Positions 26,264 through 55,632 are shown, numbered from the stretch's first letter. The stretch: 64,000 nucleotides of DNA from Actinomycetes bacterium (GCA_031423155.1 JANPEZ010000033.1:30125-94124); one strand, 5' to 3'. A program made the numbers and translations. Notes: generated by a model from the letters alone, not told the origin.

Positions 26264-27144
26264 GCTCGGCCGTCGTACGGGGGGCCCGGCATCGCCGCGA
26301 CCTGACTAACCTCGCGCTGCGGCTGTGGGGGGTGCTGGTCTTCGTCTTCCTATTCCTGCCGATCCTGATGATCGTCATCTACTCCTTCAACAACGGCCGG
26401 GCTCTGCTCGTGTGGAACGGCTTCGGGTTCGACGGGTTCCATACGGGCCTGACGAACCCGACGATCACGAACGCGATCAAGACCTCGGTAGCCGCGGCCG
26501 CCGGCACCGCTTTCATCTCGACGATCCTGGGGTCGTTCGCGGGCATCGCACTCGCCCGGCGCAAAGGCAAGTGGACCCCTCTGTTCATGGGCCTGGTGTT
26601 CCTCATCCTTGTCACTCCCGAGATCGTCAACGCCATCGCGCTGCTCATCTGGTACGTGCGGATCGGCGGACCGTTCGGCCCCGACACAGCGATCCCGGCG
26701 ATCAGCTACGGGATGCTGCGCCTCTGGGTCGGGCACTCGCTCTTCTCCACAGCCGTCGTGACGCTGATCGTCCGTGCCCGCTTGGAGGGACTCGAGGAGT
26801 CCCTCGAGGAAGCGGCCGCGGACCTCTACGCGACCCCGACGAAGCGTTTCCGCGAGATCACACTGCCCCTGATGATGCCGGCGGTGCTGGCGGGAGCCTT
26901 ACTGTCGTTCAGCTTCAGCCTCGACGACACGATCATCTCTTCTTTCGTGAGCGTCGCTGGCGCCTCACCCTGGCCGGTCTACGTCTTCTCATCGATCAGG
27001 GCGGTCCTGCGGCCCGAGGTCGCCTCCATCTCGACCCTGCTCCTGCTCCTGACACTCATCGCGATCGCCTGCGTGGCGATCGTGCTGCGAAAGAGCGGGC
27101 AGTCGACCGAAGAGGTCGCCGGCACGATGACCGGAGTCGGCTAG
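26260..27144 (+). CDS. ABC transporter permease (PotC-like)
   Basis: ATGA start overlap with the upstream permease. 6 TM helices, ...[18 protein letters not shown]. Confidence 0.8.
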
Positions 27145-28622: not shown

Positions 28623-28652
28623 GGGGTTAACTCGTCGAATGGAGAAGTCATC

Positions 28653-32219: not shown

Positions 32220-32747
32220 ATGACGGGCGTTCCCGAATCGGAAACGGTCGTCGGTGAAGGCATAAGGGACATCCCCCCTCCGTGGCCTGTGGACAACGCG
32301 ACCCTCGCGGCTCGGATGGATCGCATCGGCATGCGCCCTGTCGATCCGGACACCCTGGATCCCCAGCGCCGATATGTTCACATCGATGTAGTGATCGGCG
32401 GCAAGCCCGTTACGGTTCCGGCCGACATCGGCATCGGGCCAGGTATCACCGCGCCTATCCAGACCCACGATCCCTCGGGAGTCGTCACGGTGATCGGTGA
32501 GGAGTCCTACTCGCTTCGAGCCCTCTTCGCGATCTGGGGCGTGCGGTTCACGGCCAACGAGATAGGAGACGTCTGCAACGAGGGCGGGCGTGTACTGAGG
32601 GTCTTCGTCGACGGCAGACCTAACGTCGGCGACCTGCTCAACATCCCGTTGGTCGCGGACGAGGGGAACCAGGAGATACTCGTCGTCTACGGAACGGAGT
32701 CCGAGTTGCCCAGTCCCCTGCCATCGAGCTACCCGTTCCCCGACTAG
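32220..32747 (+). CDS. hypothetical 175-aa domain protein, possibly the extracytoplasmic domain of a membrane-anchored protein
   Basis: No SD before the ATG. In the same frame as the upstream TM ORF across a single TGA at 32196-32198. Confidence 0.5.
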
Positions 32748-34183
32748 GGGGTCGGGTCCAGGATGAGTGGCGGGAGAGGCTCCTGCGTGAAATCGAAGAT
32801 CGTCGACAGGTCGCCCAAGATCGCCTCGTTCTCCCTGACGGTAGGCCTGGAATCGGGCCGGCCATCGGTTGCCGGGTCGAGGCGCTGGCCTCCCAGGAAC
32901 CGGTCCTCGATCAACTTCAGGTAGGCATCGAAGGACAACACCTGTGAGTCGATCGACCCGGGCTTCACCCAGGGGCTGATCACGAGCCCGGGAACGCGGA
33001 GTCCGTAGCCATTCCCCCCGGCAACCCTTGGGGGCACGACGTGATCGTAGAAACCGCCCCAGTCGTCCCAGGTCAAGAAGATCGCGGTCGACTCCCAGTC
33101 CGGTCCGTTCATGGCCGCATTTATCATCCGGGTCACGTAAGCCTGACCGCTGCGGATCGGCGTCCCCGATCCGGGATGTTCGCTCGCCTGGTTCCCCGGA
33201 ACCAGCCAAGAGACCGACGGCAAAGTGCCGGAGGCCGCAGCCGCCGTGAAATCGTCGTGCCACTGGATCCTGTCGAGCTGGTCGTTCTCGTTGACGTCGA
33301 CGAAGCCGGGCAGCGTGTTCTTCCCCGACGGCGTCGAACCGTATGGCCCCGCGGTCGAGTCGCACTTGACGCTCTTGTCCACGCAGGTGCCCCGGCCGGT
33401 GTAGTAGGCCCAGCTAACACCCTGTTCGTGGAGGAGGTATGTGATGTCGGTCCAGGCATAGATAGGTGGCCGCCCGTACCGATGCTGCTCGCCTTCGCCC
33501 CGAAGGTCCACGTTGGAACGACACGACATCGGGTCGGCCGGGTCGGAGCAGACCGCGGCCCATGCAGACACGAGGTACAGGTGCGCGGGCAGGGTCCATG
33601 AGTCGGTCGGTGCGAACATCCGGTCCTGCAACATGAAGTTGTCAGCGTAGGCCCAGTAGTTCGGGATCTCAGTCCGGGTGTGGTAGGCGAGGACGTCGGG
33701 CTGGTCTTCAGGTCCGAGGAAGTCCTCGCACCCGGCCTTGAAACGGTCGCCTGCACAGCTCGACGTCTGCTTGGCAGCCTCCCTGACGAAACCGTCCATC
33801 AGGCCGCCGTTGATGTCGCCGATCGAGGCCGGCTGAGCGTGCGGCCCGCCCTCTGCGAACTGGTTCGTCGAGTGGTACGGCCGCGAGCAGTGTCCAAGGA
33901 CGGGATCGGGGATGCAGACCTTCGGAGTGCCGTCGGCTCTCATCGCGATACCGTCCGCGCCCGGGTACGTGCCGAAGTAATGATCGAACGAACGGTTCTC
34001 CTGAACGATGAAGATCAGGTGCTCGATCTTCTCCAACCCCGGAGGGACCGGCGTCGGCGTAACGGGGGGTGTTGGAGTGGTTGAACCCGGGCCCGAGCAG
34101 GCGGCCAGCAGCGTGAGCGCCGTGATCGTCCCCAGCCAGAGCCGGGATCGGCGACGCGCGAGGACCGGCCGACGTGCAGACAT
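32744..34183 (-). CDS. secreted phosphoesterase, PlcN/AcpA family, paralog 2
   Basis: [22 protein letters not shown]...[13 protein letters not shown]. Lipoprotein signal LTLLAACSG. About 70% nt identity to paralog 1 at the C-terminal end. Confidence 0.85.
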
Positions 34184-34231
34184 GGCGCAAACCCTACCCG
34201 GGAGAGGAAGTGGCGACGAACTTCGCGGATC

Positions 34232-39708: not shown

Positions 39709-40488
39709 CTAGCCGACGTCGTACGCACGCCACGACATGGGTACGAGTGGGTCGAATGGTGCGTCGAAGTCCGGAAAGGTTCGCTCCGCCCAGGCCTTGA
39801 CTTCGGCTATAGCCGGCATGAGCTCTTCCGGAGGCACCCGCCAGGTCCAGCTGTAGAGCCGCTCCTCCAGTTCTGAGAAGTAGTCGCGGAGCGTAGTCCC
39901 GTTGTGGGACATGACTTCGCCAAGCTCACGGCGACGGGCGCCTGAGGCGGCGAAGGCTTCGTCCAGGGCTTCGGTCTGGTCCACCCAGTCGAGGCCGACC
40001 GGGCGAACCCGGTCGCCCAGAAGGTCGACGAACCGAAGCCACATCTCCTGCCAACGCCCCGTGAATCCCCCGGGTTCGGTCACGATGACTCCTCCCTCTC
40101 GGACAACCCGGCAGAGCTCGGCGACCGCGCCCATCCAGTCGGGGATGAGGTGAAGGACCCACCTGCAATAGGCTCCCGCGAAGGTCCCATCGCCGCAGGG
40201 GAGCCTCGTCGCGTCCGCCTGGATGAGCGGGAAAGGAAGCGTACCCCCCGCCTTCTCGACGAGCTTCGACATCATCGCGTTCGACAGATCCAGGCCAGCG
40301 AGACTGATGCCCTTAGCCGACAGCGGGAGAGCGATCGCTCCGGTTCCGACACCGATCTCCAAGATGCGGCCGGGCCCCGAGAACTCCTGCGCGAGTAGGT
40401 CGAGTACCTCGCCGAGGCTGCCAGGGTCCGTTACCCGCGTCCTGTCGTAGTACTCCGCGGCTCGGTCGAAGGACAGCGACTCGGTCAA
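39709..40488 (-). CDS. class I SAM-dependent methyltransferase
   Basis: ILEIGVGTGAIALPLS motif I. Probable TTG start overlapping the stop of the oxygenase-like gene (TTGA). Confidence 0.65.
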   Translation of the reverse strand: MTESLSFDRAAEYYDRTRVTDPGSLGEVLDLLAQEFSGPGRILEIGVGTGAIALPLSAKGISLAGLDLSNAMMSKLVEKAGGTLPFPLIQADATRLPCGDGTFAGAYCRWVLHLIPDWMGAVAELCRVVREGGVIVTEPGGFTGRWQEMWLRFVDLLGDRVRPVGLDWVDQTEALDEAFAASGARRRELGEVMSHNGTTLRDYFSELEERLYSWTWRVPPEELMPAIAEVKAWAERTFPDFDAPFDPLVPMSWRAYDVG

Positions 40489-41507
40489 GAACCGGATCCT
40501 GAACGCTGCGCGGCGAGCAACTCGTAGCGCGGGATCTTGGCGATGTCGGGCGTGCGCTCGGGGAGCGCGGGGCGGCCTTCCACGTAGCTGCGCGCGACCA
40601 TCTGCGTGAACATGTAGACACCGGCCTCCCAACCGGTCGAGAACCTGCCGGGCCTGTGCCCGCGCGAGGCGGCCGCGCGCTGGAGGGACTCGCACGCGCG
40701 CCAGTCCTCTCCGTTCGTGATGTCCCAGAAGTCGACCGCATAGGCCGGATCGAAGCCGGGGCGCGCGACCAACTCCGGAGGGAAGAGCCACTCACACTCG
40801 ATGTAGACGCGGTCGGCGGCCAGCGCCTCGATCCGGTGGGTCAGCACGTAATCCGGGTGAGGGCTGATGAGCAGGTTCGGCCAGACGCCGAAGTACCCCA
40901 CCTCGCGGAGCGCTCTGCCCGAGAGTCCGCGCAGAGGGATGCCGTGGGACTTGCCGTCCAGCGACATCGTCTCGACGTCGTCGCGAAGATCCATAGGGCC
41001 AGCGACGAACATGCCACGCTGATCGATCGAGTAGCCACTATCCGGCGGAGTCACTTTGCAAAGGGCCGGGTGGATCTCCGAGCAGTGGTAGCACTCCTGG
41101 TAGTTCTCGTGGATCAACTTCCAGTTGGCACGAACCTCGTAGGAGTGCCGGGCGCCGACCACCAGTCTCTCGGGCTCATAAGGGGCCAGGTGCTCGAACA
41201 GGTTTCCGAACTGCTCCTCGAACTCCAGGCCCTGGGACGTTCGCGAGAAGGTCCATCCGCCGGCTTCCCTCTGCCCCCGAGCGCGCCGGTGCAGCCCCGC
41301 GCGGCCAAGGCATACCCAGGAGCGCGCGAACAGATGCTCCCTCTCCCATTCGAAGACCTCGGCCGACGTATAGGTCCGAGAAGGCAGCGCGCGCGCTTCG
41401 CCGAAGGGGGCGAGGCTGCCCACGAGCACCTCGGGTCCGAGAGGGAACTCCTGCATCAGCACAGCATCGCGGACGAGCGCATGCCTAGCAACCCGCCCAC
41501 CCAGCAT
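40485..41507 (-). CDS. ring-hydroxylating oxygenase alpha-subunit homolog retaining the catalytic (mononuclear Fe) domain but lacking the Rieske [2Fe-2S] domain
   Basis: NWKLIHENYQECYHCSEIHPAL, the His-His Fe site. The N-terminus FARSWVCLGRAG is followed directly by the linker (LEFEEQFGNLFEHLAPYE), with no CxH...CxxH cluster ligands. Confidence 0.6.
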   Translation of the reverse strand: MLGGRVARHALVRDAVLMQEFPLGPEVLVGSLAPFGEARALPSRTYTSAEVFEWEREHLFARSWVCLGRAGLHRRARGQREAGGWTFSRTSQGLEFEEQFGNLFEHLAPYEPERLVVGARHSYEVRANWKLIHENYQECYHCSEIHPALCKVTPPDSGYSIDQRGMFVAGPMDLRDDVETMSLDGKSHGIPLRGLSGRALREVGYFGVWPNLLISPHPDYVLTHRIEALAADRVYIECEWLFPPELVARPGFDPAYAVDFWDITNGEDWRACESLQRAAASRGHRPGRFSTGWEAGVYMFTQMVARSYVEGRPALPERTPDIAKIPRYELLAAQRSGSGS

Positions 41508-41562
41508 GCGGGCGCCGGGACCGGAGAGCCCTTCTCTGCGTCTTCCTGCCCAGCCAGCCCGC

Positions 41563-42720
41563 CTAGCTCTTCGCCGGAATCTCCTTCTTCGGATCCAGGA
41601 ACGGCAATGCCGCCACCGTCGCCGTCATGGTTCCCGTCGGGGATCCGATCTGGATACGAGAGCCCTCCTCAGCCTTGGCGATCGGAACCCAGGCGAACCC
41701 CATGTTGAACTCCAAGCGTGGTGAGTATGAGGCACTGACGAGGTGGCCCACCTCCTCGCCGCCCTCGACGATCCGCCAGAAGTCCTCCAGCCACATCCCC
41801 AGGGGTTCTCCGTCGATCTTCACGCCAACGAGCTTCTTCGAGACACCCTCCGCACGGATCTTCTGCAGAGCCGCGCGCGAGACGAAGATGTTGTCGTTGT
41901 CGAGTTCGACGAGCCGCTCCAGGCCGGTGATCTCGAAGGGGTTGTTCGAGATGTCCATGTCGTTGCCGTAGTTGAAGATGCCGGCTTCCATGCGTCGCTG
42001 GTCGCTCGGGGCGATGGCGCGGATCTCGAACTCCTCGCCGGCGTCCATGATCTTGTCCCAGAGCTCCGCCGCCCGGCCGGAGTCGCGCAGATAGACCTCG
42101 TAACCGAGCTCGGCGCTCCAGCCGGTACGCGAGACGACTACGGGGATCCCGTCCAGTTCGACCTGCTTGCACCAGTAGTACTTCATGTCGGCGACCTCAT
42201 CGCCGAAGAGCTTGCGCACCAACGGCTTCGAAAGGGGCCCTTGGATCTGAAGCGGGGAGACGTCCGGCTCGCGGATCTGAACGTCCATGCCCGCGAAGGC
42301 CTGCACGCCAACCGCGTAGAGCAACGCATCCGAGTCGGCCAGACTCAGCCAGAAGTGATCCTCGGCAAGCTTGAGAAGGATGGGGTCGTTGACGATGCCA
42401 CCGTCGGGCGCGCAGATGAGCACGTACTTGCACTGCCCCGGCTGCGTCTGCGACAGATCCCGCGGGGTCAGCAGTTGGGTGAACTTCGCCGCGTCGGGCC
42501 CGACGATCTCGACCTGTCGCTCCACCGCGACGTCCCACAGCGTGACCTTCTCCACCAGGTGCCAGTACTCCTTGACGTCATCGTCGTAGAGCGTCGGGAT
42601 CAACATGTGGTTGTACAGATCCCAGCTCGTCGCGCCCGCCTCGACGGTCTTGTCGAAGTAGGGCGACTTCTTGTACCAACTCGCGAAGTAGAACGGGAAC
42701 GATCTGTTCTGCTCAGTCAT
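41563..42720 (-). CDS. aminomethyltransferase (GcvT/DmdA/LigM) family THF-dependent transferase
   Basis: 385 aa with the GcvT-family N-terminal pattern (SPYFDKTVEAGATSWDLYNHMLIPTLY...LWDVAVERQVEIVGPDAAKF). Confidence 0.7.
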   Translation of the reverse strand: MTEQNRSFPFYFASWYKKSPYFDKTVEAGATSWDLYNHMLIPTLYDDDVKEYWHLVEKVTLWDVAVERQVEIVGPDAAKFTQLLTPRDLSQTQPGQCKYVLICAPDGGIVNDPILLKLAEDHFWLSLADSDALLYAVGVQAFAGMDVQIREPDVSPLQIQGPLSKPLVRKLFGDEVADMKYYWCKQVELDGIPVVVSRTGWSAELGYEVYLRDSGRAAELWDKIMDAGEEFEIRAIAPSDQRRMEAGIFNYGNDMDISNNPFEITGLERLVELDNDNIFVSRAALQKIRAEGVSKKLVGVKIDGEPLGMWLEDFWRIVEGGEEVGHLVSASYSPRLEFNMGFAWVPIAKAEEGSRIQIGSPTGTMTATVAALPFLDPKKEIPAKS

Positions 42721-44339
42721 CGGGTTGCCTTCCCCTTCCGCGCCTTGAGCGCTCTGTCTTTCTTGATCTCCCGAACCGCGTTGTAGGCCGGGATGCCGCA
42801 GACTCCTCCGCCCGCGTGCGTCGCGGACGAGGCCTGGTACAAGCCCTTGATGGGCGTGCGATAGTTCGCGTAGCCCGGCACGGGGCGCATGTGGAACAGC
42901 TGCTCTGCGGACAGCTCGCCGTGGAAGATGTTTCCCCCGATGAGCCCCCACTCATGCTCCATGTCGTAGGGCCCGATCACCTGTCTGTGCAGAACGCTGG
43001 CGGCGAAGCCGGGAGCAAGCTCGTCATAGCCGGCGATGACCCGATCCGCGTAGGCGTCCAGTTCCTCGGCATGGGGCTTCTCGCTCCACTCGTGGGGCAC
43101 CCACTGTGTGAACAGCGAGATGATGTGGTGGCCCTCCGGCGCGAGCGACCGATCGTAGACAGTCGGGATCACACCGTCGCTGAAGGGTTGCGTCGCAGCC
43201 CTTCCGGCGCGGGCCTCCTCGAAGGCCTTCTCCAGGTAGGCGATCGAGTGAGCTAGCTCCACCCCTCCGGACAGGTCGGTGAGCTCGGGGTTCGACGTGA
43301 ACCGAGGAAGCTCGGACAAAGCGCAGTTGATCTTCACGACCCCAGAACGTGTCTTCCAGTTCTCGATATCCCGGACGAAGTCGGCGGGAAGCTCGCCGCG
43401 ATCGAGTTGCTTGAGGAACGTGATCTGAGGGTGGATAGCGGTGACGACTAGGGGCGCATCGATCTCTTCGCCGCCTTCCAGGACCACGCCCGTCGCCCGA
43501 CCCCCGGCGGTCTTGATCTTGGCGACGCGGGCATGCGTGCGCACTTCGCAGCCGAACGTCCTAGCGCTCGCGGCGCAGGCATCCGACACGGCCCCCATGC
43601 CGCCTTCGGGAACCGCCCAAGACCCGAGATGGCCGTCGCCCACATCGCCGATCGAGTGGTGAGCCATCACGTACCCCGTCCCCGGCTCGTAAGGGCCGGC
43701 CCAGGTCCCTATCAACCCGTTCAGAGCCATGACGGTCTTGACCTGGTCCGATTCGAAGAACCGGTCGAGGATGTCGACGATGCTCATGGTCATCAGCCTC
43801 GTGACGTCGCCGATCTTCTTGACGTCCAGACCGCGGAACCTCCAGGCCAGCTTCAGCTGTTCGAAGAGATCGCCCGGACGCTTGGAGCCGATCGTCGGAG
43901 GAGTCGTCATCATCAAGGGACCGAGGACTTCCGCCAGACCGCCTATCCATGCGTCCCACTGCGCGATCGCGTCCGCATCCTTCTTGGAGAACTGCGCGAA
44001 CGATGCGTAGTTCTTGGCCGCATCGTCGTCGTACTGGACGATGCACCGGCCGTCGGGGAACGGAAGGAAGTAGGGCCCTACCGGGTGAGCCCTGTACCCG
44101 TGCTGCTCCAGCTTGAGATCGCGGATGATCGTGTCGGGCATCAGGCTCATCACGTAGCTGAGCGTGGTGACCTGGTACTCGGGGGCCTCGGGCCAAGGCG
44201 CGTCGGTTGCGGCGGCGCCTCCGACCTTGTGGCGAGCCTCCAGAACGATGGTGCGAGCGCCCGCCCTCGCCAGATACGCGCCCGCAACCAAGCCGTTGTG
44301 GCCCCCGCCGATCACGACCGCGTCGTAGCGATTCGACAT
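42717..44339 (-). CDS. FAD/NAD(P)-binding oxidoreductase, phytoene-desaturase/amine-oxidase superfamily
   Basis: MSNRYDAVVIGGGHNGLVAGAYLARAG, a Rossmann dinucleotide-binding motif. 540 aa. 4-nt overlap with the GcvT-like gene. Confidence 0.8.
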   Translation of the reverse strand: MSNRYDAVVIGGGHNGLVAGAYLARAGARTIVLEARHKVGGAAATDAPWPEAPEYQVTTLSYVMSLMPDTIIRDLKLEQHGYRAHPVGPYFLPFPDGRCIVQYDDDAAKNYASFAQFSKKDADAIAQWDAWIGGLAEVLGPLMMTTPPTIGSKRPGDLFEQLKLAWRFRGLDVKKIGDVTRLMTMSIVDILDRFFESDQVKTVMALNGLIGTWAGPYEPGTGYVMAHHSIGDVGDGHLGSWAVPEGGMGAVSDACAASARTFGCEVRTHARVAKIKTAGGRATGVVLEGGEEIDAPLVVTAIHPQITFLKQLDRGELPADFVRDIENWKTRSGVVKINCALSELPRFTSNPELTDLSGGVELAHSIAYLEKAFEEARAGRAATQPFSDGVIPTVYDRSLAPEGHHIISLFTQWVPHEWSEKPHAEELDAYADRVIAGYDELAPGFAASVLHRQVIGPYDMEHEWGLIGGNIFHGELSAEQLFHMRPVPGYANYRTPIKGLYQASSATHAGGGVCGIPAYNAVREIKKDRALKARKGKATR

Positions 44340-44391
44340 GGCTGCCTTCTCCCTGACCGGTGCTCACCGGTCGTCGGATGGCACCGTACTA

Positions 44392-44407
44392 CTGAATGGC
44401 TATTCAG
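44392..44407. promoter_or_regulatory. 16-bp palindromic operator-like site CTGAATGGCTATTCAG, copy 1
   Basis: Near-perfect inverted repeat, 53 nt upstream of the oxidoreductase start codon. Confidence 0.4.
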
Positions 44408-44469: not shown

Positions 44470-44485
44470 CTGAGTGGCTATTCAG
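44470..44485. promoter_or_regulatory. palindromic operator-like site CTGAGTGGCTATTCAG, copy 2
   Basis: Second copy 78 bp from copy 1. Overlaps the 3' end of the MFS gene. Confidence 0.35.
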
Positions 44486-45716
44486 GAAGTTCGGCTCGCA
44501 GCCGCCGGGATTCCTCCCGCAGCGGGCCGAAGAGGATCATCAGACCCAACCCCGCACTCACCCCGGCGAGGGCGTAGGCCCATCGGGGTCCAACGGCTTC
44601 GATCAAGATCCCGGCGAAAGCGAACGAACAGGCCAGCGCCAACAGAACCGCGGCCTCCGTCGCACCCATGACCCGGCTGCGGACCTCATCCGGCGTGCGA
44701 CGTTGCACGATCGCCTGCTCGCCGACGCTTCCGAAGCCATCGCCGGCACCGGCTATCCCGAGGACGGCAACCGCTACACCTAGTACCGGGGCCACCGCCA
44801 CCAGGGCGAGTCCGACCGCCACGAAGGCCACTCCCCCGATCACGGCGTTCGCCTCGCCGCGCGCTCGGAGCCACCTTTGAGCGATCAACGCCCCTAGCGC
44901 AGCCCCACCCGCCCATCCCGCGGACAGAAGGCCGTACCCGAACGAACCGGCGTGGAACGCTTCTGCCAAGGCGACCTCGGCGACGATAGTCGTTCCGGCG
45001 CCGAGCAGCAGGACGACCCAGCCTATGGTCATCGACCGAAGGAGCCGGTCCTTCCACAGGTAGACGAACCCCGCACGGATCCCGCGGAACTCCTCCGCCC
45101 GCTCTCGGTCGCCGTTGAAACGGCCCCCGGTCGTCCCGATGAGCCATGCCGAGACCAGGAACGAGATCGCGTTGAGGCCGAAGACCACGTAGCCGGCCAG
45201 ACGAAGCTGAGGAACGGTGCTGGCCGGTGCCATCAGTGCAACGACGCCTCCTCCGATGATCGGACCGACGAACTGCCCCAGGTTGCGGCTGAAGGAGACC
45301 GCTCCGTTCGCCCAGGTCAGATCGTCTTCTTCGACCAGGTTGGGCAGGGCAGCCGCCGAGACCGCCCAGATCGGCGACTCGACCGCGGCGGTGACGAAGG
45401 CCATGGCCAGGAGCTGGCCCGGTGTTCGCATGAAGGCAAGAGCGACGAACCCGGCGGCTCCGACGATGTCGGTGATCACCAGAAGTCGCTTTCGGTCGTA
45501 GCGGTCCCCGAGAGCGCTGGCCAGGGGCGAGAGGAGCCCTTGAACCCCGAACGTCAGCAGGAAGGTCCAAGCGACCCAGGTCGAGGACTTGTCCGTGATG
45601 TGGAACATGATGTAGGCGAGAGCCACCCAGGCGCCGCCGCTGCCGGAAAGTGAGATCAGGCGCGCGGCGGCAACGCGATGGACATCCGAGCGTTGGTTTC
45701 TAACCGAGGAACTCAT
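44478..45716 (-). CDS. MFS transporter
   Basis: 412 aa, 12 predicted TM helices. Confidence 0.8.
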   Translation of the reverse strand: MSSSVRNQRSDVHRVAAARLISLSGSGGAWVALAYIMFHITDKSSTWVAWTFLLTFGVQGLLSPLASALGDRYDRKRLLVITDIVGAAGFVALAFMRTPGQLLAMAFVTAAVESPIWAVSAAALPNLVEEDDLTWANGAVSFSRNLGQFVGPIIGGGVVALMAPASTVPQLRLAGYVVFGLNAISFLVSAWLIGTTGGRFNGDRERAEEFRGIRAGFVYLWKDRLLRSMTIGWVVLLLGAGTTIVAEVALAEAFHAGSFGYGLLSAGWAGGAALGALIAQRWLRARGEANAVIGGVAFVAVGLALVAVAPVLGVAVAVLGIAGAGDGFGSVGEQAIVQRRTPDEVRSRVMGATEAAVLLALACSFAFAGILIEAVGPRWAYALAGVSAGLGLMILFGPLREESRRLRAELPE

Positions 45717-48225: not shown

Positions 48226-49395
48226 CTATCGCGTCCCGGCTTCCATGAAGACGCCCTCGGCCGCGGCCACGGCGGCGCCTCGCTTGACGGGATGGCCGAG
48301 TTTCTCGAGGGTCATCTCGAGGGCGGCCAGGCCGCGGATGATGTCCAACTCGGAGAAGTATCCGAAGTGCCCGATGCGGAAGACCTTGCCCTTGAGGGGT
48401 CCTTGCCCCGGCGCAAGGACGCACCCGTGATCGGCCCTAACGGTTGCGCAGATGACATCGGCGTCGGCGGCCTCCGGAGCCCGGATCGCCGTCACTGTCC
48501 AGTTGTCCTCCAGGCCTTCGCCGAAAAGGTCCAGACCCAGCGCCCTGACCCCTTCCTTGACGGCTCGCGAGAGCATCTCGTGTCGCCTCAGAGCGACCTC
48601 GACGCCGTCCTGGAAATAGAGCTCGAGCGCCGCCTGCAGGCCCAACATCACACTGATGGCCGGCGTCCAGGGGTTCTCCGGATCGGGGAGGGACGCGAAC
48701 CGCTTGTAGACCCTCCAGTCGAAGTAGAAACGAGGGTTGGTCGAGGTCTCGGTGGCCGCCCAGGCTCTGTCGCTGATAGCGGCGAAGGCGATGCCGGGCG
48801 AGGCCGACAGTGCCTTCTGCGAACCCCCCAGGGCAACGTCGAGCCCCCATGCGTCGAACTCGACCGGCACGGCGCCGAGCGAGCTGACGACGTCGGCCAC
48901 CACGAGGGCACCTGCCTCGCGAGCCACGCTTGCGAGTTCTTCGATCGGCTGGATCACCCCCGTCGAGGTCTCGCTCTGCGTCAGTAGCACGGCCTTGACG
49001 GGATGCTCTGCGAGAGCGTCGGCGATCTCGGCCGGGACGATCCTTCGTCCCCACTCGTAGTCGACCGTCCGCACGATGAGGCCGTAGGCCTCCGCCAGTT
49101 GCTTCCAGCGATCGGCGAAGAATCCGGCAACCGGAACGAGTACCTCGTCTCCTGGCGAGAAGCAGTTCTGGATCGCCGACTCCAGGGCTCCGGTTCCGCT
49201 GGAAGTCATCAGGAGGATGTCCGCCGACTCGGTCCTGTAGAGCTCCTTCAACCTGGCGGTAACGTCGCGCATGATCGCCCCGAAAGCGGGCCCGCGGTGA
49301 TACACGAGAGGACTTCCCTGCGCCAGGAGCACCTCCGGAGGGATCGGAGTAGGTCCGGGAGCCAGGATGATCTCCGGCCTGTTCAACTGACTCAA
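48226..49395 (-). CDS. serC: class V aminotransferase (phosphoserine aminotransferase-type, SerC analog)
   Basis: 389 aa with the GGSQKALSASPG PLP-Lys region. Adjacent to serA. Confidence 0.8.
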   Translation of the reverse strand: MSQLNRPEIILAPGPTPIPPEVLLAQGSPLVYHRGPAFGAIMRDVTARLKELYRTESADILLMTSSGTGALESAIQNCFSPGDEVLVPVAGFFADRWKQLAEAYGLIVRTVDYEWGRRIVPAEIADALAEHPVKAVLLTQSETSTGVIQPIEELASVAREAGALVVADVVSSLGAVPVEFDAWGLDVALGGSQKALSASPGIAFAAISDRAWAATETSTNPRFYFDWRVYKRFASLPDPENPWTPAISVMLGLQAALELYFQDGVEVALRRHEMLSRAVKEGVRALGLDLFGEGLEDNWTVTAIRAPEAADADVICATVRADHGCVLAPGQGPLKGKVFRIGHFGYFSELDIIRGLAALEMTLEKLGHPVKRGAAVAAAEGVFMEAGTR

Positions 49396-49505
49396 CTCCT
49401 GAGGGGTCGGCGAACTTCAAGACTATCAGCGGGTGCTCGCGCGACCCGGGAAGCGGCCACGCTTGACGGCCCCTATCATCTGGCGGGCCCGACCGGAAAG
49501 GACTC

Positions 49506-52500
49506 GTGGCCACCCTTCGGTTCCTCCTCAAACGCTTCATAGCCCAGCGAGGGTTGGGGCTGGCCGTGGTGGTCACACTCGCCTTCAGCATCGGCGTGAT
49601 GGTGGCCGGGCCTATCTACGCCGACGCAGCCAGGGAGGCCATCGTTTCCTCCGCCCTTTCAACCGCCGACGTCACGGTGGTCAACACCAGGTTCAGCGTC
49701 TACGCGGAAGCCGGCTTCGATCTCGCCGGGGCGGACTCGTCGATCACCAGCCTCACGGGAACCATCCCGCTGACGGCTCTGGTCCGACAGGGGCGTGGTC
49801 CGGTCGTCATCGGCGCTGACACAGCCACATATCAGACGAACGCGATCTTCAGAGAAGGCGCCGAGGATCACCTTCCGGCATTCAGGGGCAGAGCCCCTCG
49901 GGTTGGAGAGATCGCCCTTCCGGCCACCCTCGCCATAGATCTCAACGCGCGCATCGGCGACGAGGTGGTCATCTCCGGAACAGCGGACGCCCGTCCGGTT
50001 CGTCTCCTCGTCACTGCAACGTTCTCGACTCCGGAAGCCGGCGACCCGTTCTGGTTCGGAAGCAAGAGCCCGTTCGCGGAACCGGATTCAGCGCAGCCCA
50101 TACCCGTGCTGATGAGCCGGGGCGGCTACTTCGACATCTGGAACGAGCTCGGCACGACCACGGAGTTCGTCTGGGATGCGTACATCGATCTCAGCCAGCT
50201 CACATTCACCGAGGCCAACGACCTTCCCGCGGCGGCGCGCCGAATCACCGATCAACTGCGGACGCATCCCGGGCTGGAAACTCTTCAAGCTGCCCATGGA
50301 CTCGACACCCTGCTCGTCGTAGTTCGCCAACGGATCGAGAACCTTCGCGTTCCGATCTTCCTTGTCGTCTTCCAGATAGGTGCGGTGACCTTGGCCGTCC
50401 TGGCCGGGGTCGGGTCTCTCACCCTGACCAGGCAGGCGTTCGAACTGGCGGTCCTGCACTCCCGCGGACTCTCGCGCCGGATATTGCTCCTTGCCCAAGC
50501 GGCCCAGGCCGCGTTGATGGCGGCTCTCTCCTACCCCCTGGGCCTGCTTCTCGGCTTGGGATTGGCGAAGCTGGGGAGCGGATCGAACGGACCTACCCTT
50601 CCGGGGACCCTCTTCCCGGTTCGGATGAACGCGAACGCCGAGCTACTCGGCCTGATCGTGGCGGTCGTCGGGGCAGCGATCTTGCTGCTCCTTTCTGTGC
50701 CCCACGTTCGCCGCACGGTTCTGGAGCAGCGAAGAACGGTGTCGCGTGAGGATCGCCCACCTCTCCTTCGGCTCCCGATCGAACTGTTCTTGCTGCCTGT
50801 CGGGATCTTCTCCTTCATTCAGCTACGCGCCCAGGGGAAGCCGAAACCGGGCGCGGGGACGATAGACCCGCTCGTTCTGCTTGCGCCAACGCTCCTGATC
50901 TTCGCGTGTTCCTTCCTGGCGCTGCGACTGCTGATGGTTGGACTCAGGGCCGCCGATCGTGCCATCGGGCGCTCGCGCTCGCTCAGCAGATACCTGGCCT
51001 TCAGGAGACTCGGCAGAGCTCCCGGTATCGGATTCGCGGCCGCGCTCCTGCTCCTCCTTTCGATAGGACTGCTGGTCGTATCGACGTCTTACCGGGCGAT
51101 CGCCCTCAGAAGCCACCAAGACGGCGCTCACCAGATCGTTGGGGGCGACTGGCGCATCCAGGTAGCCAGCCCGGATCAACCCATCCGCGCGATCGCGGCG
51201 ATGCCTCCCTCGACGACCCCGCTCGTCAGAACCCAGCCTTTCTTCCAGAGTGGCCGATTCTCCGACGTGCCGATCGCACTGGCGATCGATCCCGCAACCT
51301 TCTCCGACGGAGGCTGGTGGCGCTCGGACTACTCGACGACATCGCTCGATCGCTTGCTCGATGGCCTGCGAACAGACCCGTTCGGGATAGAGCTTCCTCC
51401 GGAGGCCGGTGGGATGACGGTCGAGATGACCGCCCCATCACAGGCCGCGGGCTTGGTTATGGCGGCGACCTTCGAGCTCGGCGACCGGACGATCATCACA
51501 TCCGAGGCTGGGGTCGTGCGCTCGGGCTCTCACACGTATGGGTTCGACGCGGCCGGCGCGAACCGGTTGCTCTCGATCTCGCTGGCGGATCCCGTAGGCG
51601 GGGAACTGCCTTCCTCCCTGGACCTGGAGATCGGACCCATTTTCGCCGGCGGACAGGAGATATCGACGGACGCATTCACCCCGATGACCTGGAGGGGCTC
51701 AGGCGGCGACCTTCGCGGCGGCTCGTTCCAGCTATCCCCCGGGCTGGGGGAGGTCGTCGGCGGACTGGTTCCGGTCTCGAGTCCGCTCCCCGTGATCGCC
51801 TCGACCTCCGTCGCCGAGCAGCTGGGCGAGGGATTCCCCGTCACCCTTGGAGCGCAACAGTTCCGGACGGTCACGATCGCAGTGGCCGAGTCCTTCCCGA
51901 CCGTCTCACCCGGTGGGGCCTTCATCGTGGTGCCGGCCGACTACCTCCTCGAACGCGCGGCGGCCATCCCCGAGGCGGGCTTGGCGCTGAACGAGGTGTG
52001 GGCCAACGGGGAGACCGACCCTCTGCCTGCCTTGGAGAGAGCCGGGTTCATCCCCGGTACGGTCGAACAGACGGCGCCGATAGTGGGCTCGCTCGCCCAG
52101 CTCCCTCAGAGCCTGGCGGTGGGTCTGGAGTTCACATCGGCGGCGGCGGGCCTGGGTCTGGTCATCATCGGCGTCGCGGTCGGCCTTGCGGTCTCCCAAA
52201 GGAGGCGCGACTTCGAATTCGCCGCGATGCGGGCGATGGGAGCCGAACCCTCACACCTGCGCCGCGCGTTGATCATGGAACAGACGGTGCTGCTCGGGTT
52301 CTCCGTCGCGGCCGGCCTGGCGGTGGGCTACCTGATGCTGAAACTGATGTTGCCCTACTTCGGCCGGGACATCGGCGTCGCATTCCCCGAGCCGATCCTG
52401 GTCGTCGATGGCAGAGCTCTCGTGGTCTCCGTGATCGCGATAGTCGTCGCAACGAGCTTCAGCTCTTGGCTCTCGCTCCGCTCCTTGATGCGCTCGTCCG

Positions 52501-52532
52501 TTACCGGGGTACTGCGAGGCGAGGCCGAATGA
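49506..52532 (+). CDS. ABC transporter permease with duplicated FtsX-like 4-TM domains and large extracytoplasmic loops (MacB-like)
   Basis: 1008 aa. An N-terminal TM helix, a large extracellular domain, then TM bundles around residues 290-420 and again at the C-terminus. Confidence 0.8.
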   Translation: MATLRFLLKRFIAQRGLGLAVVVTLAFSIGVMVAGPIYADAAREAIVSSALSTADVTVVNTRFSVYAEAGFDLAGADSSITSLTGTIPLTALVRQGRGPVVIGADTATYQTNAIFREGAEDHLPAFRGRAPRVGEIALPATLAIDLNARIGDEVVISGTADARPVRLLVTATFSTPEAGDPFWFGSKSPFAEPDSAQPIPVLMSRGGYFDIWNELGTTTEFVWDAYIDLSQLTFTEANDLPAAARRITDQLRTHPGLETLQAAHGLDTLLVVVRQRIENLRVPIFLVVFQIGAVTLAVLAGVGSLTLTRQAFELAVLHSRGLSRRILLLAQAAQAALMAALSYPLGLLLGLGLAKLGSGSNGPTLPGTLFPVRMNANAELLGLIVAVVGAAILLLLSVPHVRRTVLEQRRTVSREDRPPLLRLPIELFLLPVGIFSFIQLRAQGKPKPGAGTIDPLVLLAPTLLIFACSFLALRLLMVGLRAADRAIGRSRSLSRYLAFRRLGRAPGIGFAAALLLLLSIGLLVVSTSYRAIALRSHQDGAHQIVGGDWRIQVASPDQPIRAIAAMPPSTTPLVRTQPFFQSGRFSDVPIALAIDPATFSDGGWWRSDYSTTSLDRLLDGLRTDPFGIELPPEAGGMTVEMTAPSQAAGLVMAATFELGDRTIITSEAGVVRSGSHTYGFDAAGANRLLSISLADPVGGELPSSLDLEIGPIFAGGQEISTDAFTPMTWRGSGGDLRGGSFQLSPGLGEVVGGLVPVSSPLPVIASTSVAEQLGEGFPVTLGAQQFRTVTIAVAESFPTVSPGGAFIVVPADYLLERAAAIPEAGLALNEVWANGETDPLPALERAGFIPGTVEQTAPIVGSLAQLPQSLAVGLEFTSAAAGLGLVIIGVAVGLAVSQRRRDFEFAAMRAMGAEPSHLRRALIMEQTVLLGFSVAAGLAVGYLMLKLMLPYFGRDIGVAFPEPILVVDGRALVVSVIAIVVATSFSSWLSLRSLMRSSVTGVLRGEAE

Positions 52533-53395
52533 TGTCTCTCCCGCCCGACAGCTTCGTCGCCAAGTCCCAAGACCTGCTGGTCCGGTTCCGTCACGTGTTC
52601 AAGGTTTACCGGGTGGCGGACACCGGCATCGTCGCTCTGGGCGGGATCACCTTCGATATCCCCCGTGGGGAGTTCCTGGCCGTGGTCGGCCCCAGCGGCG
52701 CCGGGAAGTCCACGATCTTGAACCTGATAGGTGGCCTGGATCGCGCCTCTGCGGGAGAGATCGAGGTCGACGGGCGAGATCTCGGACTGCTTTCCGATGA
52801 TGAGTTGACGAGCTACCGAGCCGAGCGGGTCGGATTCGTCTGGCAAGGAACCGCGCGAAACCTGGTCCCCTACCTATCCGTCCGCGAGAACGTGCGACTG
52901 CCCGCGGCCATACATCGCGATTCCGCATCGGTCCGGCGCCGGGACGCCGATGAGCTCCTGGAGCTGGTGGGGATGGGCGAACGCCGGCGCCACCTACCGG
53001 GTCAACTCTCCGGGGGAGAGCAGCAGCGCGTGGCGATAGCCGTTGCCCTGGCCAACACACCCGACATCTTGCTGGCCGATGAGCCGACGGCCGAACTGGA
53101 CTCGGAGTCGGCCGAGAACGTAGTGGAGGTCTTCCGGGCCGTGAACCACGAGTTCGGGGTAACGATCGTTATGGTTACACACGACCTGGCTGCGGCTCGA
53201 CGCGCGCACGTTCGGGTGCGCGTAAGGGACGGGCGCCTCATCAAGGAGGGCACTCCTGTTGAACCCATCGAACCGGATGGGCGGCTCAGGCTTCCCGATG
53301 AGGTCGTGGCCGCGTTGGGTGGACTCGAACTCGAATCGGAGTTCGAAGGCGGAGAGCTGCGACTGCGGCGAAGGAGCGATACCGGCCATGCCTGA
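52529..53395 (+). CDS. ABC transporter ATP-binding protein 1
   Basis: ATGA overlap with the permease. Walker A GPSGAGKST, signature LSGGEQQRVAIAVAL, and a C-terminal about 50-aa extension. Confidence 0.85.
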   Translation: MMSLPPDSFVAKSQDLLVRFRHVFKVYRVADTGIVALGGITFDIPRGEFLAVVGPSGAGKSTILNLIGGLDRASAGEIEVDGRDLGLLSDDELTSYRAERVGFVWQGTARNLVPYLSVRENVRLPAAIHRDSASVRRRDADELLELVGMGERRRHLPGQLSGGEQQRVAIAVALANTPDILLADEPTAELDSESAENVVEVFRAVNHEFGVTIVMVTHDLAAARRAHVRVRVRDGRLIKEGTPVEPIEPDGRLRLPDEVVAALGGLELESEFEGGELRLRRRSDTGHA

Positions 53396-54101
53396 GCCTC
53401 TGCTTCGAGCCGAAGGCATCGTCCGCCGGCACCGAGGGGCCGGGGGTGTTCTTGCCGTCCGAGGGGCTTCACTTTCCCTGCAGCCCAAGGACTTCGTGGC
53501 TCTGATGGGCCCGTCGGGCTCGGGCAAGACGACCTTCATCGGGGTACTTGCGGCGCTCGACCGGCCCGATGAAGGCACCTTGTCCTGGAAGGGCCAGGAT
53601 CCCTTCTCGATGTCTCACGACCAGACCATGGCGCTGCGACGAACAGGCATGGGCGTGGTCTTCCAGAGCTTCGGGCTACTCCCGACGCTCTCGGCGGCCG
53701 AGAACGTCGAACTCCCGCTGAGGGTCGCGGGGGTGAACCTGGACGAAGGGCGCGAGCGGGCCCTGGGGTGGCTCGAGCGCTTAGGACTGGCCGATCGGGC
53801 GGACAACCGCACCTTCGAGCTGTCCGCCGGGCAGCAACAGCGAGTGGCTGTGGCGCGCGCGCTGATCGCCGAACCTGAGGTCGTCCTTGCGGACGAGCCG
53901 ATAGCCGAGGTCGACACCGAGAACGCCGATCTGATCCTGGAGGCGCTCTGGGACGTGATCGGCCGCGGCGGCGCGGTCCTTGCCGCAACTCACAACCCGG
54001 AGGCCCTGCGCTACGCGAGTCGAGTCGTTCTCTTCAAGGACGGACAGATCCAGGCCGAGGGGTCACCCGAGGATCTGGCCGGTCACCTGACCACCGACTA
54101 G
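53388..54101 (+). CDS. ABC transporter ATP-binding protein 2
   Basis: ATGCCTGA overlap with ATPase 1. Walker A GPSGSGKTT, signature LSAGQQQRVAVARAL. Confidence 0.85.
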   Translation: MPEPLLRAEGIVRRHRGAGGVLAVRGASLSLQPKDFVALMGPSGSGKTTFIGVLAALDRPDEGTLSWKGQDPFSMSHDQTMALRRTGMGVVFQSFGLLPTLSAAENVELPLRVAGVNLDEGRERALGWLERLGLADRADNRTFELSAGQQQRVAVARALIAEPEVVLADEPIAEVDTENADLILEALWDVIGRGGAVLAATHNPEALRYASRVVLFKDGQIQAEGSPEDLAGHLTTD

Positions 54102-55324
54102 TCCTGGGGAACCAGCGACCGCAGGTCGGTATCGGGATCCTCTAGTGCCTGCGGGTCCGGAACGATCTGAGACCGGATGAGCCCGAAGGATCGGCGCACG
54201 TCGCGCTTGTAGTCGAGTGAGACGCTCGAGCGAACCACGCCCCTTTCGTCCAGCAGGAACGCACAGAACGAGCCCTCCTCGAGCGACCCGCGCACGATCA
54301 TCCGATCCCAGGTGGGAGCGAACCCGGCCATCTGGATCTGGGAGTCGTACTGGTCGGACCAGAACCAGTGAGGATCGTCGAACACCTCGGAACCGCCGAG
54401 CATGTTGCGCGCGGCCGTTGCTCCCATCTTGATGGCGTTGTCGAAATGTTCGACGCGGATCGGACCGAAGACGGGGTGCTCATGACGGGCGACATCTCCG
54501 GCAGCGAAGACACCGGGGATAGCGGTCTCAAGGGTGGGTCCCACCGGGATCCCTGCGGGATCATCGAGGCCGGTGCCGGTCATGACGTCCATCGCGGGCT
54601 CGGTCCCTATCCCGACGACGACCAGGTCGGCCTCGAGCGAGAGTCCCCCGGAAGTGACCACCCGCTCCACCCGAAGATCACCCTCGAACCGTTCGACCTT
54701 GTCGTTGAAGTGCATGGTGACCCCGTGATCGCGATGCAGGCGCTCCACAACCCGTCCCAACTCGGGGCCTAGAACTCGGAACAGCGTCGTTTCGAAGATC
54801 TCCACGACTGTCACGATGCAGCCCATCTCGGCCAGGGAGGCCGCCACCTCGGCACCGATGAAACCCATCCCGATGCAGACGACCTTGGCCCCTGAGCTCG
54901 CGGCGGCGCGGATCTCGTCGGAGTCGCCCACCGTTCGCAGATCGGATATGCCGGGAAGGTCCGATCCTTCGACATCGAGCCGCCGGTTGCGGCTGCCCGT
55001 CGCAACCAGGAGACGTTCGTAGCCGATGCGCTCTCCTCCGGCCAGCACAACCTCTCGGGTCGCGGGCTCGATCTGTACGACGGTCGTTCCGGTTCTCAGA
55101 TCTATGCCGTTGTCGGCGTACCAGAGGGCCGGCCGCACGAACGTGTCGTCTATCGATGATCCGCCGCGCAGATACTCCTTGGACAACGCCGGCCGCTCAT
55201 AGGGAACCAGGTCCTCTGCGCCGAGCATCACGATCGGTCCGTCGAATCCGGAATCCCTGAGCGTCGCGGCAGCCGTAGCGGCGCACAGACTTGCCCCGAC
55301 TATGACGAAGGGCGAACCCGTCAA
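54098..55324 (-). CDS. FAD-dependent ferredoxin--NAD(P)+ reductase (putidaredoxin-reductase-like)
   Basis: FVIVGASLCAATAA, the FAD site, then a second Rossmann motif VVCIGMGFIGAEVA. 408 aa. Confidence 0.85.
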   Translation of the reverse strand: MTGSPFVIVGASLCAATAAATLRDSGFDGPIVMLGAEDLVPYERPALSKEYLRGGSSIDDTFVRPALWYADNGIDLRTGTTVVQIEPATREVVLAGGERIGYERLLVATGSRNRRLDVEGSDLPGISDLRTVGDSDEIRAAASSGAKVVCIGMGFIGAEVAASLAEMGCIVTVVEIFETTLFRVLGPELGRVVERLHRDHGVTMHFNDKVERFEGDLRVERVVTSGGLSLEADLVVVGIGTEPAMDVMTGTGLDDPAGIPVGPTLETAIPGVFAAGDVARHEHPVFGPIRVEHFDNAIKMGATAARNMLGGSEVFDDPHWFWSDQYDSQIQMAGFAPTWDRMIVRGSLEEGSFCAFLLDERGVVRSSVSLDYKRDVRRSFGLIRSQIVPDPQALEDPDTDLRSLVPQD

Positions 55325-55632
55325 ACCCCTACCTGCAGATCCTCGCCGTCCTCGCGTACTTCGAAGACCTCGATCGGATCGACCGCCGGCCCATCGAGGA
55401 CCTCACCGGTCTTCATGTCGAATCGGCTGCCGTGGCATTCGCACTCGATCGCGGTGCCGTCGATGTCTCCTCCCGACGACAGGTTGCACTGGCGGTGCGT
55501 GCAGATGTCGCTGAAAGCGAAGAGCTCCCCGCCCGAACGCGCCACCGCGATCAGCTGGCCGTCGACGTCGAAGGCCATCGCCTGTCCTTCGCCGATCTCC
55601 TCACCTTTGCCTACGGATCGAAACTCGGGCAT
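55321..55632 (-). CDS. Rieske [2Fe-2S] ferredoxin
   Basis: CTHRQCNL and CECHGSRF, the two CxH/CxxH boxes. 103 aa. 4-nt overlap with the reductase gene. Confidence 0.85.
   Translation of the reverse strand: MPEFRSVGKGEEIGEGQAMAFDVDGQLIAVARSGGELFAFSDICTHRQCNLSSGGDIDGTAIECECHGSRFDMKTGEVLDGPAVDPIEVFEVREDGEDLQVGV

Follow-up and report, generated by a model that had tools for sequence, protein, structure and literature searches.

A conserved Rieske-less clade of Group V-type ring-hydroxylating oxygenases encoded with DmdA-like and CrtI-fold proteins in uncultured Actinomycetota

Rieske oxygenases are defined by the presence of both metal centres in one subunit, and the hop of electrons from the cluster of one subunit to the iron of another is the step that is hardest to manipulate. 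A 64-kb stretch of DNA from an Actinomycetes bacterium (GCA_031423155.1, JANPEZ010000033.1:30125-94124; 64,000 nucleotides, referred to as the window) raises the question of how the alpha subunit of a ring-hydroxylating oxygenase (RHO) could serve its host after losing its Rieske domain. On the minus strand, four co-directional open reading frames (ORFs) were confirmed within 44339-39709, encoding a flavoprotein, a GcvT-family protein, the RHO and a methyltransferase. An earlier description of this DNA, made from the nucleotides alone (the sequence-only reading), had reported the four genes with overlaps or short gaps, and had proposed that a Rieske domain of about 90 residues was cleanly lost in frame and not by a frameshift. 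Both statements were borne out here. The best overall explanation, to which a probability of roughly 0.45 was assigned, is that the RHO is a working Group V catalytic subunit with a Rieske cluster fed in trans, encoded in an operon for onium or betaine catabolism.

Analysis of the 340-residue RHO protein with Pfam revealed PF00848 (Ring_hydroxyl_A) at 9.2e-43 as the sole family, and no match to PF00355 (Rieske) was found at E<=0.01, so that no intact Rieske domain was detected by hidden Markov model. When the protein was aligned with Rieske-containing relatives of about 400 residues and 53-56% identity, 85 consecutive columns (80-164; CRHRGH...CPYH) were empty in the window RHO and in all Rieske-less sequences. 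The reading frame was continuous across the gap, where a linker of 11 residues took the place of the [2Fe-2S] core. No remnant of the Rieske domain was found in any frame at the RHO gene, and the CxH...CxxH motif was absent from all 41 members of the clade described below. The loss of the Rieske domain was clean and in frame. Two further features set the Rieske-less proteins apart in the alignment, the insertion of a single Trp and a C-terminal tail (PRYE) that is conserved. Just three alignment positions separated them from the Rieske-containing relatives, which indicates that the catalytic domain, including the surface that once contacted the Rieske domain, was hardly remodelled.

The short form is widespread. 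A search of 5.8 billion clusters at the 90% identity level revealed more than 100 clusters of 318-325 residues that matched PF00848 alone and were 58-77% identical to the window RHO. These clusters were drawn from NCBI, JGI, ENA and Logan assemblies and every one was labelled Actinomycetota; in this search no Rieske-containing protein exceeded about 60% identity. When one genome was scanned for each GTDB species, 80 loci were obtained. Of these, 41 were Rieske-less, all from uncultured Actinomycetota or 'Actinomycetes' metagenome-assembled genomes (MAGs), and 39 carried the Rieske motif, with the labels Actinomycetota, Dormibacterota, 'Chloroflexi' and, once, Micrarchaeaceae. The labels of the Rieske-less relatives are too broad to place them in Rubrobacteria or Thermoleophilia, the groups named in the sequence-only reading for a survey of neighbourhoods. 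In a neighbour-joining tree of 301 shared columns with 37 intact Rieske-less sequences and 200 bootstraps, the Rieske-less sequences formed a single split in 199 of the 200 replicates (198 of 200 with further representatives added), which argues for one ancestral deletion. The ORFs were intact in about 37 species, and the pairwise ratios of nonsynonymous to synonymous substitution rates (dN/dS) of the RHO were 0.06-0.18, indistinguishable from those of the ilvE, GcvT and flavoprotein genes. The Rieske-less clade has been kept under purifying selection, and it is this short form, not an intact orthologue, that the relatives share.

A profile search of 1.84 billion representatives added three more Rieske-less, Group V-like sequences, P0189, P0209 and P0217, which fell outside the main clade, had Rieske-containing nearest neighbours and may be independent losses of the domain. 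P0189 (L092, 146-1105) sits on a 1.2-kb contig with no gene context. In NCBI, some proteins of the clade were labelled 'RHO alpha subunit C-terminal catalytic domain-containing protein' and one 'SRPBCC family protein'. The labels 'glycine cleavage T protein', 'phytoene dehydrogenase-like' and 'Rieske 2Fe-2S family protein' were also in use for the genes of these loci, and the last is wrong for the Rieske-less clade.

The PDB sequence and profile searches with the RHO matched only 3n0q, Stc2 (3vca, 4qup) and CntA (6y8j). An AlphaFold2 (AF2) monomer model had a mean predicted local distance difference test score (pLDDT) of 92.7 and a predicted template modelling score (pTM) of 0.91, and Foldseek placed 4qur, 3vca, 3n0q and 6zgp on top with E values of 1e-20 to 1e-15, corresponding to Stc2, 3n0q and CntA. 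Judged by sequence and modelled fold, the RHO is one of the Group V (quaternary-ammonium) oxygenases, with CntA, Stc2 and GbcA, although its score with the NCBIfam GbcA equivalog was 83.7 bits against a cut-off of 670. In CntA, the Rieske ligands are C86, H88, C106 and H109, the iron ligands are H208, H213 and D323, E205 bridges the two centres, Y203 is the pi-cation residue and C206 and C209 form the Group V pair (PMC7948474, PMC10952381). The E205 variants of CntA folded normally but lost cluster-to-iron electron transfer and activity, and in alpha3 Rieske oxygenases the electron always passes from the Rieske domain to the iron of the next subunit (PMC7948474, PMC10952381). With the assumption of a 20-residue tag in the chain numbering of 6y8j, all seven positions compared in the window RHO fitted those of CntA (Y136=Y203, E138=E205, C139=C206, C142=C209, H141=H208, H146=H213 and D268=D323).

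Across 43 Rieske-less sequences, each of the seven residues was either invariant or conserved in at least 90%. The predicted iron ligands H141, H146 and D268 were invariant, so that the 2-His-1-carboxylate site was kept, and the His-His iron motif (ENYQECYHCSEIH) that the sequence-only reading had pointed out could be aligned to CntA. Invariance was also found for the bridging Glu138 and for C139 and C142 of ECYHC, the Group V Cys-X-X-Cys pair. The pi-cation Tyr136, two residues before Glu138, was at least 90% conserved, with Phe in one member. Since the RHO falls in Group V, methylated onium compounds are favoured as substrates over the aromatics that the sequence-only reading had also considered. 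CntA (carnitine), Stc2 (stachydrine) and GbcA (glycine betaine) thus share with the window RHO the His-His-Asp site, the bridging Glu, the CxxC pair and the pi-cation Tyr. All characterised members of Group V, however, have an N-terminal Rieske domain and a CntB/GbcB-type reductase, and the window RHO has neither. A regular-expression scan, the only kind made for such a partner, found no plant-type ferredoxin motif in the window, and its single match to an FNR-type motif was dismissed as lying in an ORF without any Pfam family. No CntB/GbcB-type reductase was seen adjoining the Rieske-containing relatives either.

The mononuclear iron would still need two electrons per turnover. That Glu138 is invariant in a protein without a cluster is the chief reason for supposing that a cluster still docks at this site and, together with the two-electron need of the iron, leads us to propose that a Rieske cluster is supplied in trans. 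The candidate donor is a Rieske ferredoxin of the BphF/AndAb/HcaC type. The sequence-only reading had named this stand-alone ferredoxin as the only Rieske protein in the window, and a motif scan of six frames agreed, with the 103-residue protein as the sole Rieske signature in the 64 kb. It can now be added that a gene for a ferredoxin-NAD(+) reductase follows immediately, its start overlapping the ferredoxin gene. The best PDB matches of the ferredoxin were the ferredoxins of biphenyl, carbazole and toluene dioxygenases, and a homologue search with it listed at least 51 close matches. The reductase, of the glutathione reductase (GR) type and without a Rieske motif, scored 325 bits with the NCBIfam model of AndAa and 273 bits with that of HcaD, both under the cut-off.

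Within 10 kb of 44 Rieske-less loci, no Rieske protein other than a BphF-type ferredoxin occurred; in the loci examined it was always paired with its reductase and never adjoined an oxygenase. In 12 of the 24 loci that have a full 10-kb flank (counting the window, where the distance is 14 kb), the pair lay upstream on the operon's strand at 8-10 kb, and the genes ran GatB, membrane protein, ferredoxin, reductase, class V aminotransferase, SerA, MFS and operon. An opposite-strand ATP-binding cassette (ABC)/FtsX system was inserted after the reductase in the window and in L088, and it is because of this insertion that the spacing between ferredoxin and operon is 14 kb instead of 9 kb. In the window, an ORF of about 1000 codons and an ABC ATPase-like gene occupy 49467-54101 (+), between the reductase and a probable serC-type aminotransferase ORF (48226-49395). 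A 1008-residue FtsX-family permease and ABC ATPases stand at the same position in L088 and L089, and relatives of the L009 type are without them.

A single in-frame deletion took the Rieske domain from an ancestral Group V oxygenase, and the short form then persisted under purifying selection throughout a lineage of uncultured soil Actinomycetota. In the proposed reading, the operon would take up and demethylate an onium, betaine-like compound. The likeliest supplier of electrons would be the orphan ferredoxin and its NADH-dependent reductase, with the ferredoxin docking where the lost Rieske domain of the neighbouring subunit once sat, in a split system analogous to NdmC/NdmD. The fully specified form of this proposal, in which a free general-purpose ferredoxin passes electrons through the bridging Glu to the catalytic iron within an onium demethylation pathway under a BetI-type operator, is tentative and stands on the doubtful side.

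Several observations weigh against supply in trans within such a module. No reductase or ferredoxin gene was found in the operon, neither in the Rieske-less loci nor in the Rieske-containing relatives, and the ferredoxin/reductase pair lies outside it, beyond serC/serA-type housekeeping genes and the ABC/FtsX system. Its nearness may be merely inherited synteny, and in one related locus, L090, the pair stands in the same synteny although RHO and flavoprotein are both missing. The ferredoxin is of the canonical BphF type and is not a product of fission. To our knowledge, direct transfer from a free Rieske ferredoxin to a mononuclear iron is undocumented. Glu138 could have been kept for structural or iron-tuning reasons. 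Moreover, the module is not obligatory, since two of 29 loci (L015 and L029) contain the DUF179, RHO and methyltransferase genes without the flavoprotein or GcvT gene. Gene fission, with the ferredoxin as the excised domain, was rejected as an origin, because the identity between the ferredoxin and the Rieske domain of P0115 was 29% and the ferredoxin gave BphF-type proteins as its best matches. Neither the window nor the 10-kb surroundings of the Rieske-less loci contained a relocated ORF for an RHO-type Rieske domain.

The sequence-only reading had called electron delivery to a Rieske-less alpha subunit unusual; it does have one characterised precedent. NdmC, from the 7-methylxanthine N-demethylase NdmCDE of Pseudomonas putida CBB5, is likewise an RHO alpha-type subunit without a Rieske domain. 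Its oxidative N-demethylation uses a Rieske cluster from another polypeptide, which is only predicted for the window RHO. The Rieske domain of NdmCDE is fused to the FNR-type reductase NdmD, whereas the window has a free ferredoxin and a GR-type reductase 14 kb away. In addition, NdmCDE is held together by NdmE, a protein resembling glutathione S-transferase (GST), whereas a scan of the operon genes in the window gave no GST-family match. At E<=1e-3 the RHO did not match NdmA in sequence, so that the Rieske losses in NdmC and in the window clade were most likely independent. The window ferredoxin and reductase are of the same type as the BphG/BphF, AndAa/AndAb and HcaD/HcaC chains. In those three-component chains, however, the ferredoxin reduces the Rieske cluster of the oxygenase itself and not its mononuclear iron, and the window has no Rieske oxygenase nearby. 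A literature search with Pfam codes found nothing relevant on Rieske-less families, and a 2025 review of Rieske oxygenases made no mention of Rieske-less subunits.

A Rieske cluster could also come from a sister protein. Because electrons cross between subunits in alpha3 enzymes, mixed trimers with a Rieske-containing paralogue from another part of the genome could serve the Rieske-less sites from a neighbouring Rieske domain, and paralogues with 53-60% identity do occur in the same phylum and the same metagenomes. However, a Rieske-containing RHO was not found within 10 kb of any of the 41 Rieske-less loci, and, among the 80 loci, no isolate name of those compared by eye gave both forms. A mixed trimer would also leave at least one active site without a donor. 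We consider this arrangement unlikely.

The neighbourhood of the RHO gene was mapped by tblastn with the window proteins against all loci, and the conserved order was MFS, flavoprotein, GcvT, (APH-like kinase), DUF179, RHO, methyltransferase and ilvE. The flavoprotein gene was present in 27 of the 29 Rieske-less loci with enough upstream sequence, and the GcvT gene likewise; L030 lacked GcvT. The make-up of the operon given in the sequence-only reading, a DmdA-type tetrahydrofolate (THF) enzyme with a flavoprotein and an RHO, was confirmed. The gene of DUF179 (YqgE/AlgH) was found in 35 of 43 loci, in two gene orders and always beside the RHO gene, and its product could be a partner or a passenger of the RHO. 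It was absent from the sub-lineage of the window (the window, L002/L023, L027 and L038). An APH(6)-like phosphotransferase gene lay between the GcvT and DUF179 genes in L011-L014, L016-L018, L020, L022, L029, L043 and L044; L022 also had an apparent tandem duplication of the GcvT-APH-DUF179 block that may be an assembly artefact. L090 (GCA_016201135.1, JACQDK010000006.1; 10001-19400) contained the ferredoxin/reductase pair, MFS, a GcvT of 57% identity and ilvE, and no methyltransferase.

The Rieske-less loci and their intact relatives also have an operator-like site in common. The 139-nt region upstream of the flavoprotein gene contained two copies of the palindrome CTGAAT-N4-A(T/C)TCAG, and two copies about 79 nt apart were also found in L001, L002, L009, L010, L018, L022 and L046. 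In the 1.49 Mb of the window and loci, YTGAAY-N4-RTTCAR had 56 exact matches, where by our own estimate about 1-2 were expected. Nearly all of the matches preceded one of two genes, the flavoprotein gene in Rieske-less loci or, immediately, the RHO gene of the Rieske-containing relatives from actinobacteria; in L007 and L053 they stood upstream of transporter or flavoprotein genes. A gene for a BetI-type TetR repressor (PF13977) was adjacent in L007 and L053, and homologues of 35-56% identity were detected by tblastn in L052, L049 and L079. The 64-kb window and the 10 kb around the Rieske-less loci had no BetI-type TetR gene. The presence of the palindrome in both Rieske-less and Rieske-containing loci argues for the same regulon and the same pathway step.

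This operator bears on whether the protein has changed its job and is no longer an oxygenase that depends on a reductant. It could have become an iron enzyme that is redox-neutral or driven by its substrate, or else it could bind a ligand or act as scaffold in partnership with DUF179 or the DmdA-like enzyme. The lack of an electron donor in the operon, the position of DUF179 beside the RHO in both gene orders and the bare SRPBCC label given once by NCBI are in keeping with a new role. Not only the fold, however, but all of the residues for O2 activation and electron entry were invariant, DUF179 was missing in the window and a sub-clade, and an operator in common with the intact Rieske orthologues argues for the same pathway step. 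A DUF179-RHO fusion (P0112) was rejected as a frameshift artefact of a frameshift-ridden long-read contig. A change of job therefore seems improbable.

The flavoprotein could provide a route that would need no cluster at all. Acting as an oxidase, it could generate H2O2 for a peroxide shunt that would replace electrons derived from NAD(P)H and make the Rieske domain dispensable. CntA is able to run such a shunt (PMC7948474, PMC10952381). Many members of the flavin amine-oxidase/CrtI fold turn O2 into H2O2. The flavoprotein scored 237 bits with the NCBIfam model of CrtO (cut-off 1000) and 77 with crtI_fam (cut-off 238.1), both below threshold. Its AF2 model (pLDDT 79.9) was closest in fold to 4rep and CrtI (4dgk), followed by NicA2, putrescine oxidase and monoamine oxidase (MAO), and it has only the fold in common with the CrtI-family carotenoid desaturases and ketolases. 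Human PYROXD2, which may be related to the flavoprotein, is reported to be linked genetically to trimethylamine and dimethylamine levels (PMC3169529). In Dormibacterota, a flavoprotein of 68% identity was found with a Rieske-containing RHO, a DmdA-like GcvT (55%), a second GcvT and an adjoining Pot-type ABC transporter. As the Rieske domain is intact there, the module of flavoprotein, RHO and DmdA-like protein must be older than the Rieske loss, and the association with the RHO on which the shunt depends is both old and frequent. The same Dormibacterota nevertheless retain the flavoprotein and the Rieske domain together, two loci keep the RHO but lack the flavoprotein, and a shunt gives no reason for the invariance of the bridging Glu138. 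Shunt reactions in Rieske oxygenases are, in addition, usually slow and inactivating. We regard the peroxide route as distinctly improbable. Decay of the RHO to a pseudogene, or an assembly artefact, was suggested by frameshifted copies on some long-read MAG contigs (L043, L044, L063, L086 and L091) but is refuted in our judgement by the intact ORFs, the selection analysis and the wide distribution of the same architecture across independent assemblies.

Among the partners of the RHO, the GcvT-family protein was best matched in the PDB by DmdA of P. ubique (3tfh; 3.6e-78, 38.6% identity over 355 columns), whereas the identity between DmdA and true GcvT is 22-26%. The NCBIfam DmdA model PRK12486 was its best family with 366.6 bits, yet below the cut-off of 410; TIGR00528 (149.7 against 235.85) and PRK00389 (179.1 against 300) were also below theirs. 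Of the two THF enzymes invoked in the sequence-only reading, the likeness to DmdA is upheld by the 39% identity to 3tfh and the likeness to LigM is not. DmdA, the dimethylsulfoniopropionate (DMSP) demethylase of SAR11 and roseobacters, is thus the nearest known enzyme over the full length, but the window type of gene occurs in soil Actinomycetota and Dormibacterota and stands beside an oxygenase and a flavoprotein, a context that is undescribed for dmdA. The protein also matched the folate domains of dimethylglycine oxidase, sarcosine oxidase SoxA and the trimethylamine N-oxide (TMAO) demethylase Tdm. These N-demethylases pair a redox enzyme with a THF-binding protein by the same logic as the window operon; their redox and folate modules are fused, whereas the window components are separate genes, and they belong to the branch that forms methylene-THF, whereas the window protein belongs to the methyl-transferring DmdA branch. 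No described module of Rieske, DmdA/GcvT and flavoprotein components was found in the literature.

The methyltransferase was present in 37 of 40 loci. In the pairs L016/L018, L011/L012 and L021/L024 it was 42-46% identical, compared with 82-98% (most above 90%) for its neighbours, and its dN/dS was 0.24-0.65, which suggests repeated replacement or a very relaxed constraint. It is the least stable and most loosely attached member of the cluster. The MFS transporter is a candidate uptake system for the operon; its gene was syntenic in nearly all Rieske-less loci, and the Rieske-containing relatives have Pot-type ABC transporters instead.

The features are collected in Table 1. The flavoprotein and GcvT genes meet in an ATGA overlap at 42720-42717, and the RHO and methyltransferase genes in a TTGA overlap at 40488-40485, where the methyltransferase starts with TTG and not ATG. 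Between GcvT and RHO there are 55 nt if the RHO starts with the ATG at 41507 and 106 nt if it starts with that at 41456, and the shorter product was favoured by comparison with the relatives. The end of the methyltransferase gene is followed after 77 nt by an ilvE-type gene with its own ribosome binding. Rfam revealed no riboswitch or RNA control element near the operon. A scan of 38.5-46.8 kb for sigma-70 promoters gave zero promoter-like sites and was uninformative, as was a terminator scan of the same region, which gave one plus-strand terminator-like site, fewer than expected by chance.

Table 1. Coordinates of the operon, the candidate donor pair and the operator-like sites in the window, and of related sites in other loci (locus handles precede the positions)
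Feature	Position	Strand	Basis
MFS transporter, 412 aa, upstream of operon	44478..45716	-	Pfam MFS_1 + MFS_3
Flavoprotein, 540-aa FAD-dependent oxidoreductase, CrtI/flavin amine-oxidase fold	42717..44339	-	Pfam Amino_oxidase + NAD_binding_8
GcvT-family DmdA-like THF-dependent enzyme, 385 aa	41563..42720	-	Pfam GCV_T + GCV_T_C
Rieske-less RHO alpha subunit, 340 aa (323 aa if start = 41456)	40485..41507	-	PF00848
Linker LHRRARGQREA (11 residues) replacing the ~85-aa Rieske [2Fe-2S] core	41262..41294	-	Alignment + translation
Active-site motif ENYQECYHCSEIH	41070..41108	-	Translation; residues matched to CntA
Asp268, predicted third iron ligand (= CntA Asp323)	40704..40706	-	Profile alignment to 6y8j
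Class I S-adenosylmethionine-dependent methyltransferase, 259 aa	39709..40488	-	Pfam Methyltransf_11/25
Palindromic operator-like site CTGAATAGCCATTCAG (minus-strand reading), 53 nt upstream of flavoprotein start	44392..44407	.	
Second, imperfect palindrome CTGAATAGCCACTCAG, 78 nt from the first, overlapping the MFS stop codon	44470..44485	.	
BphF/AndAb/HcaC-type Rieske ferredoxin, 103 aa, candidate electron donor in trans	55321..55632	-	CTHRQC...CECH
Ferredoxin-NAD(+) reductase, AndAa/HcaD/BphA4 type, 408 aa	54098..55324	-	NCBIfam
Palindrome in relatives	L007 3875; L047 1060; L048 9928; L050 9982; L052 1958; L053 9894, 18973; L055 9929; L057 165; L058 9934; L066 2490		
DUF179 gene, examples (also ~30 other loci)	L001 7413-7955; L004 6481-7023; L033 10990-11529		

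Two other features of the window were observed. Two paralogous genes of the PF04185 'Phosphoesterase family' (27141-28823 and 32744-34231, minus strand) lie 5-13 kb from the operon. PF04185 is the family of phospholipases C and acid phosphatases; if the two products were phospholipases C, they would release phosphocholine, from which a substrate of the choline or betaine type might be derived. These genes were not seen in the examined flanks of the relatives L001-L004. In addition, 21362-21651 (-) matched the Rfam family 5_ureB_sRNA with 54.7 bits (gathering score 40), antisense to a 584-aa ORF at 21150-22901 (+), and the match may reflect conservation of the coding sequence rather than a small RNA.

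That an RHO catalytic subunit can do without a Rieske domain is not new in principle, given the precedent of NdmC. What is new is a large Rieske-less lineage maintained by selection inside Group V, its conserved association with a CrtI-fold flavoprotein and a DmdA-like enzyme, and the operator in common with the Rieske-containing relatives. A conserved Rieske-less family would extend far beyond the single example from the caffeine pathway the evidence that a Rieske domain is not needed in cis, and would offer a system in which the electron donor and acceptor are separate proteins. If supply of the cluster in trans is true, these loci would contain a natural and genetically separable Rieske-to-iron transfer step in an undescribed three-enzyme pathway of onium demethylation. 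Taken with the operator and the presence of the module in Dormibacterota, the DmdA-like and flavoprotein genes suggest that abundant but uncultured bacteria of the soil have an uncharacterised route for methylated onium compounds.

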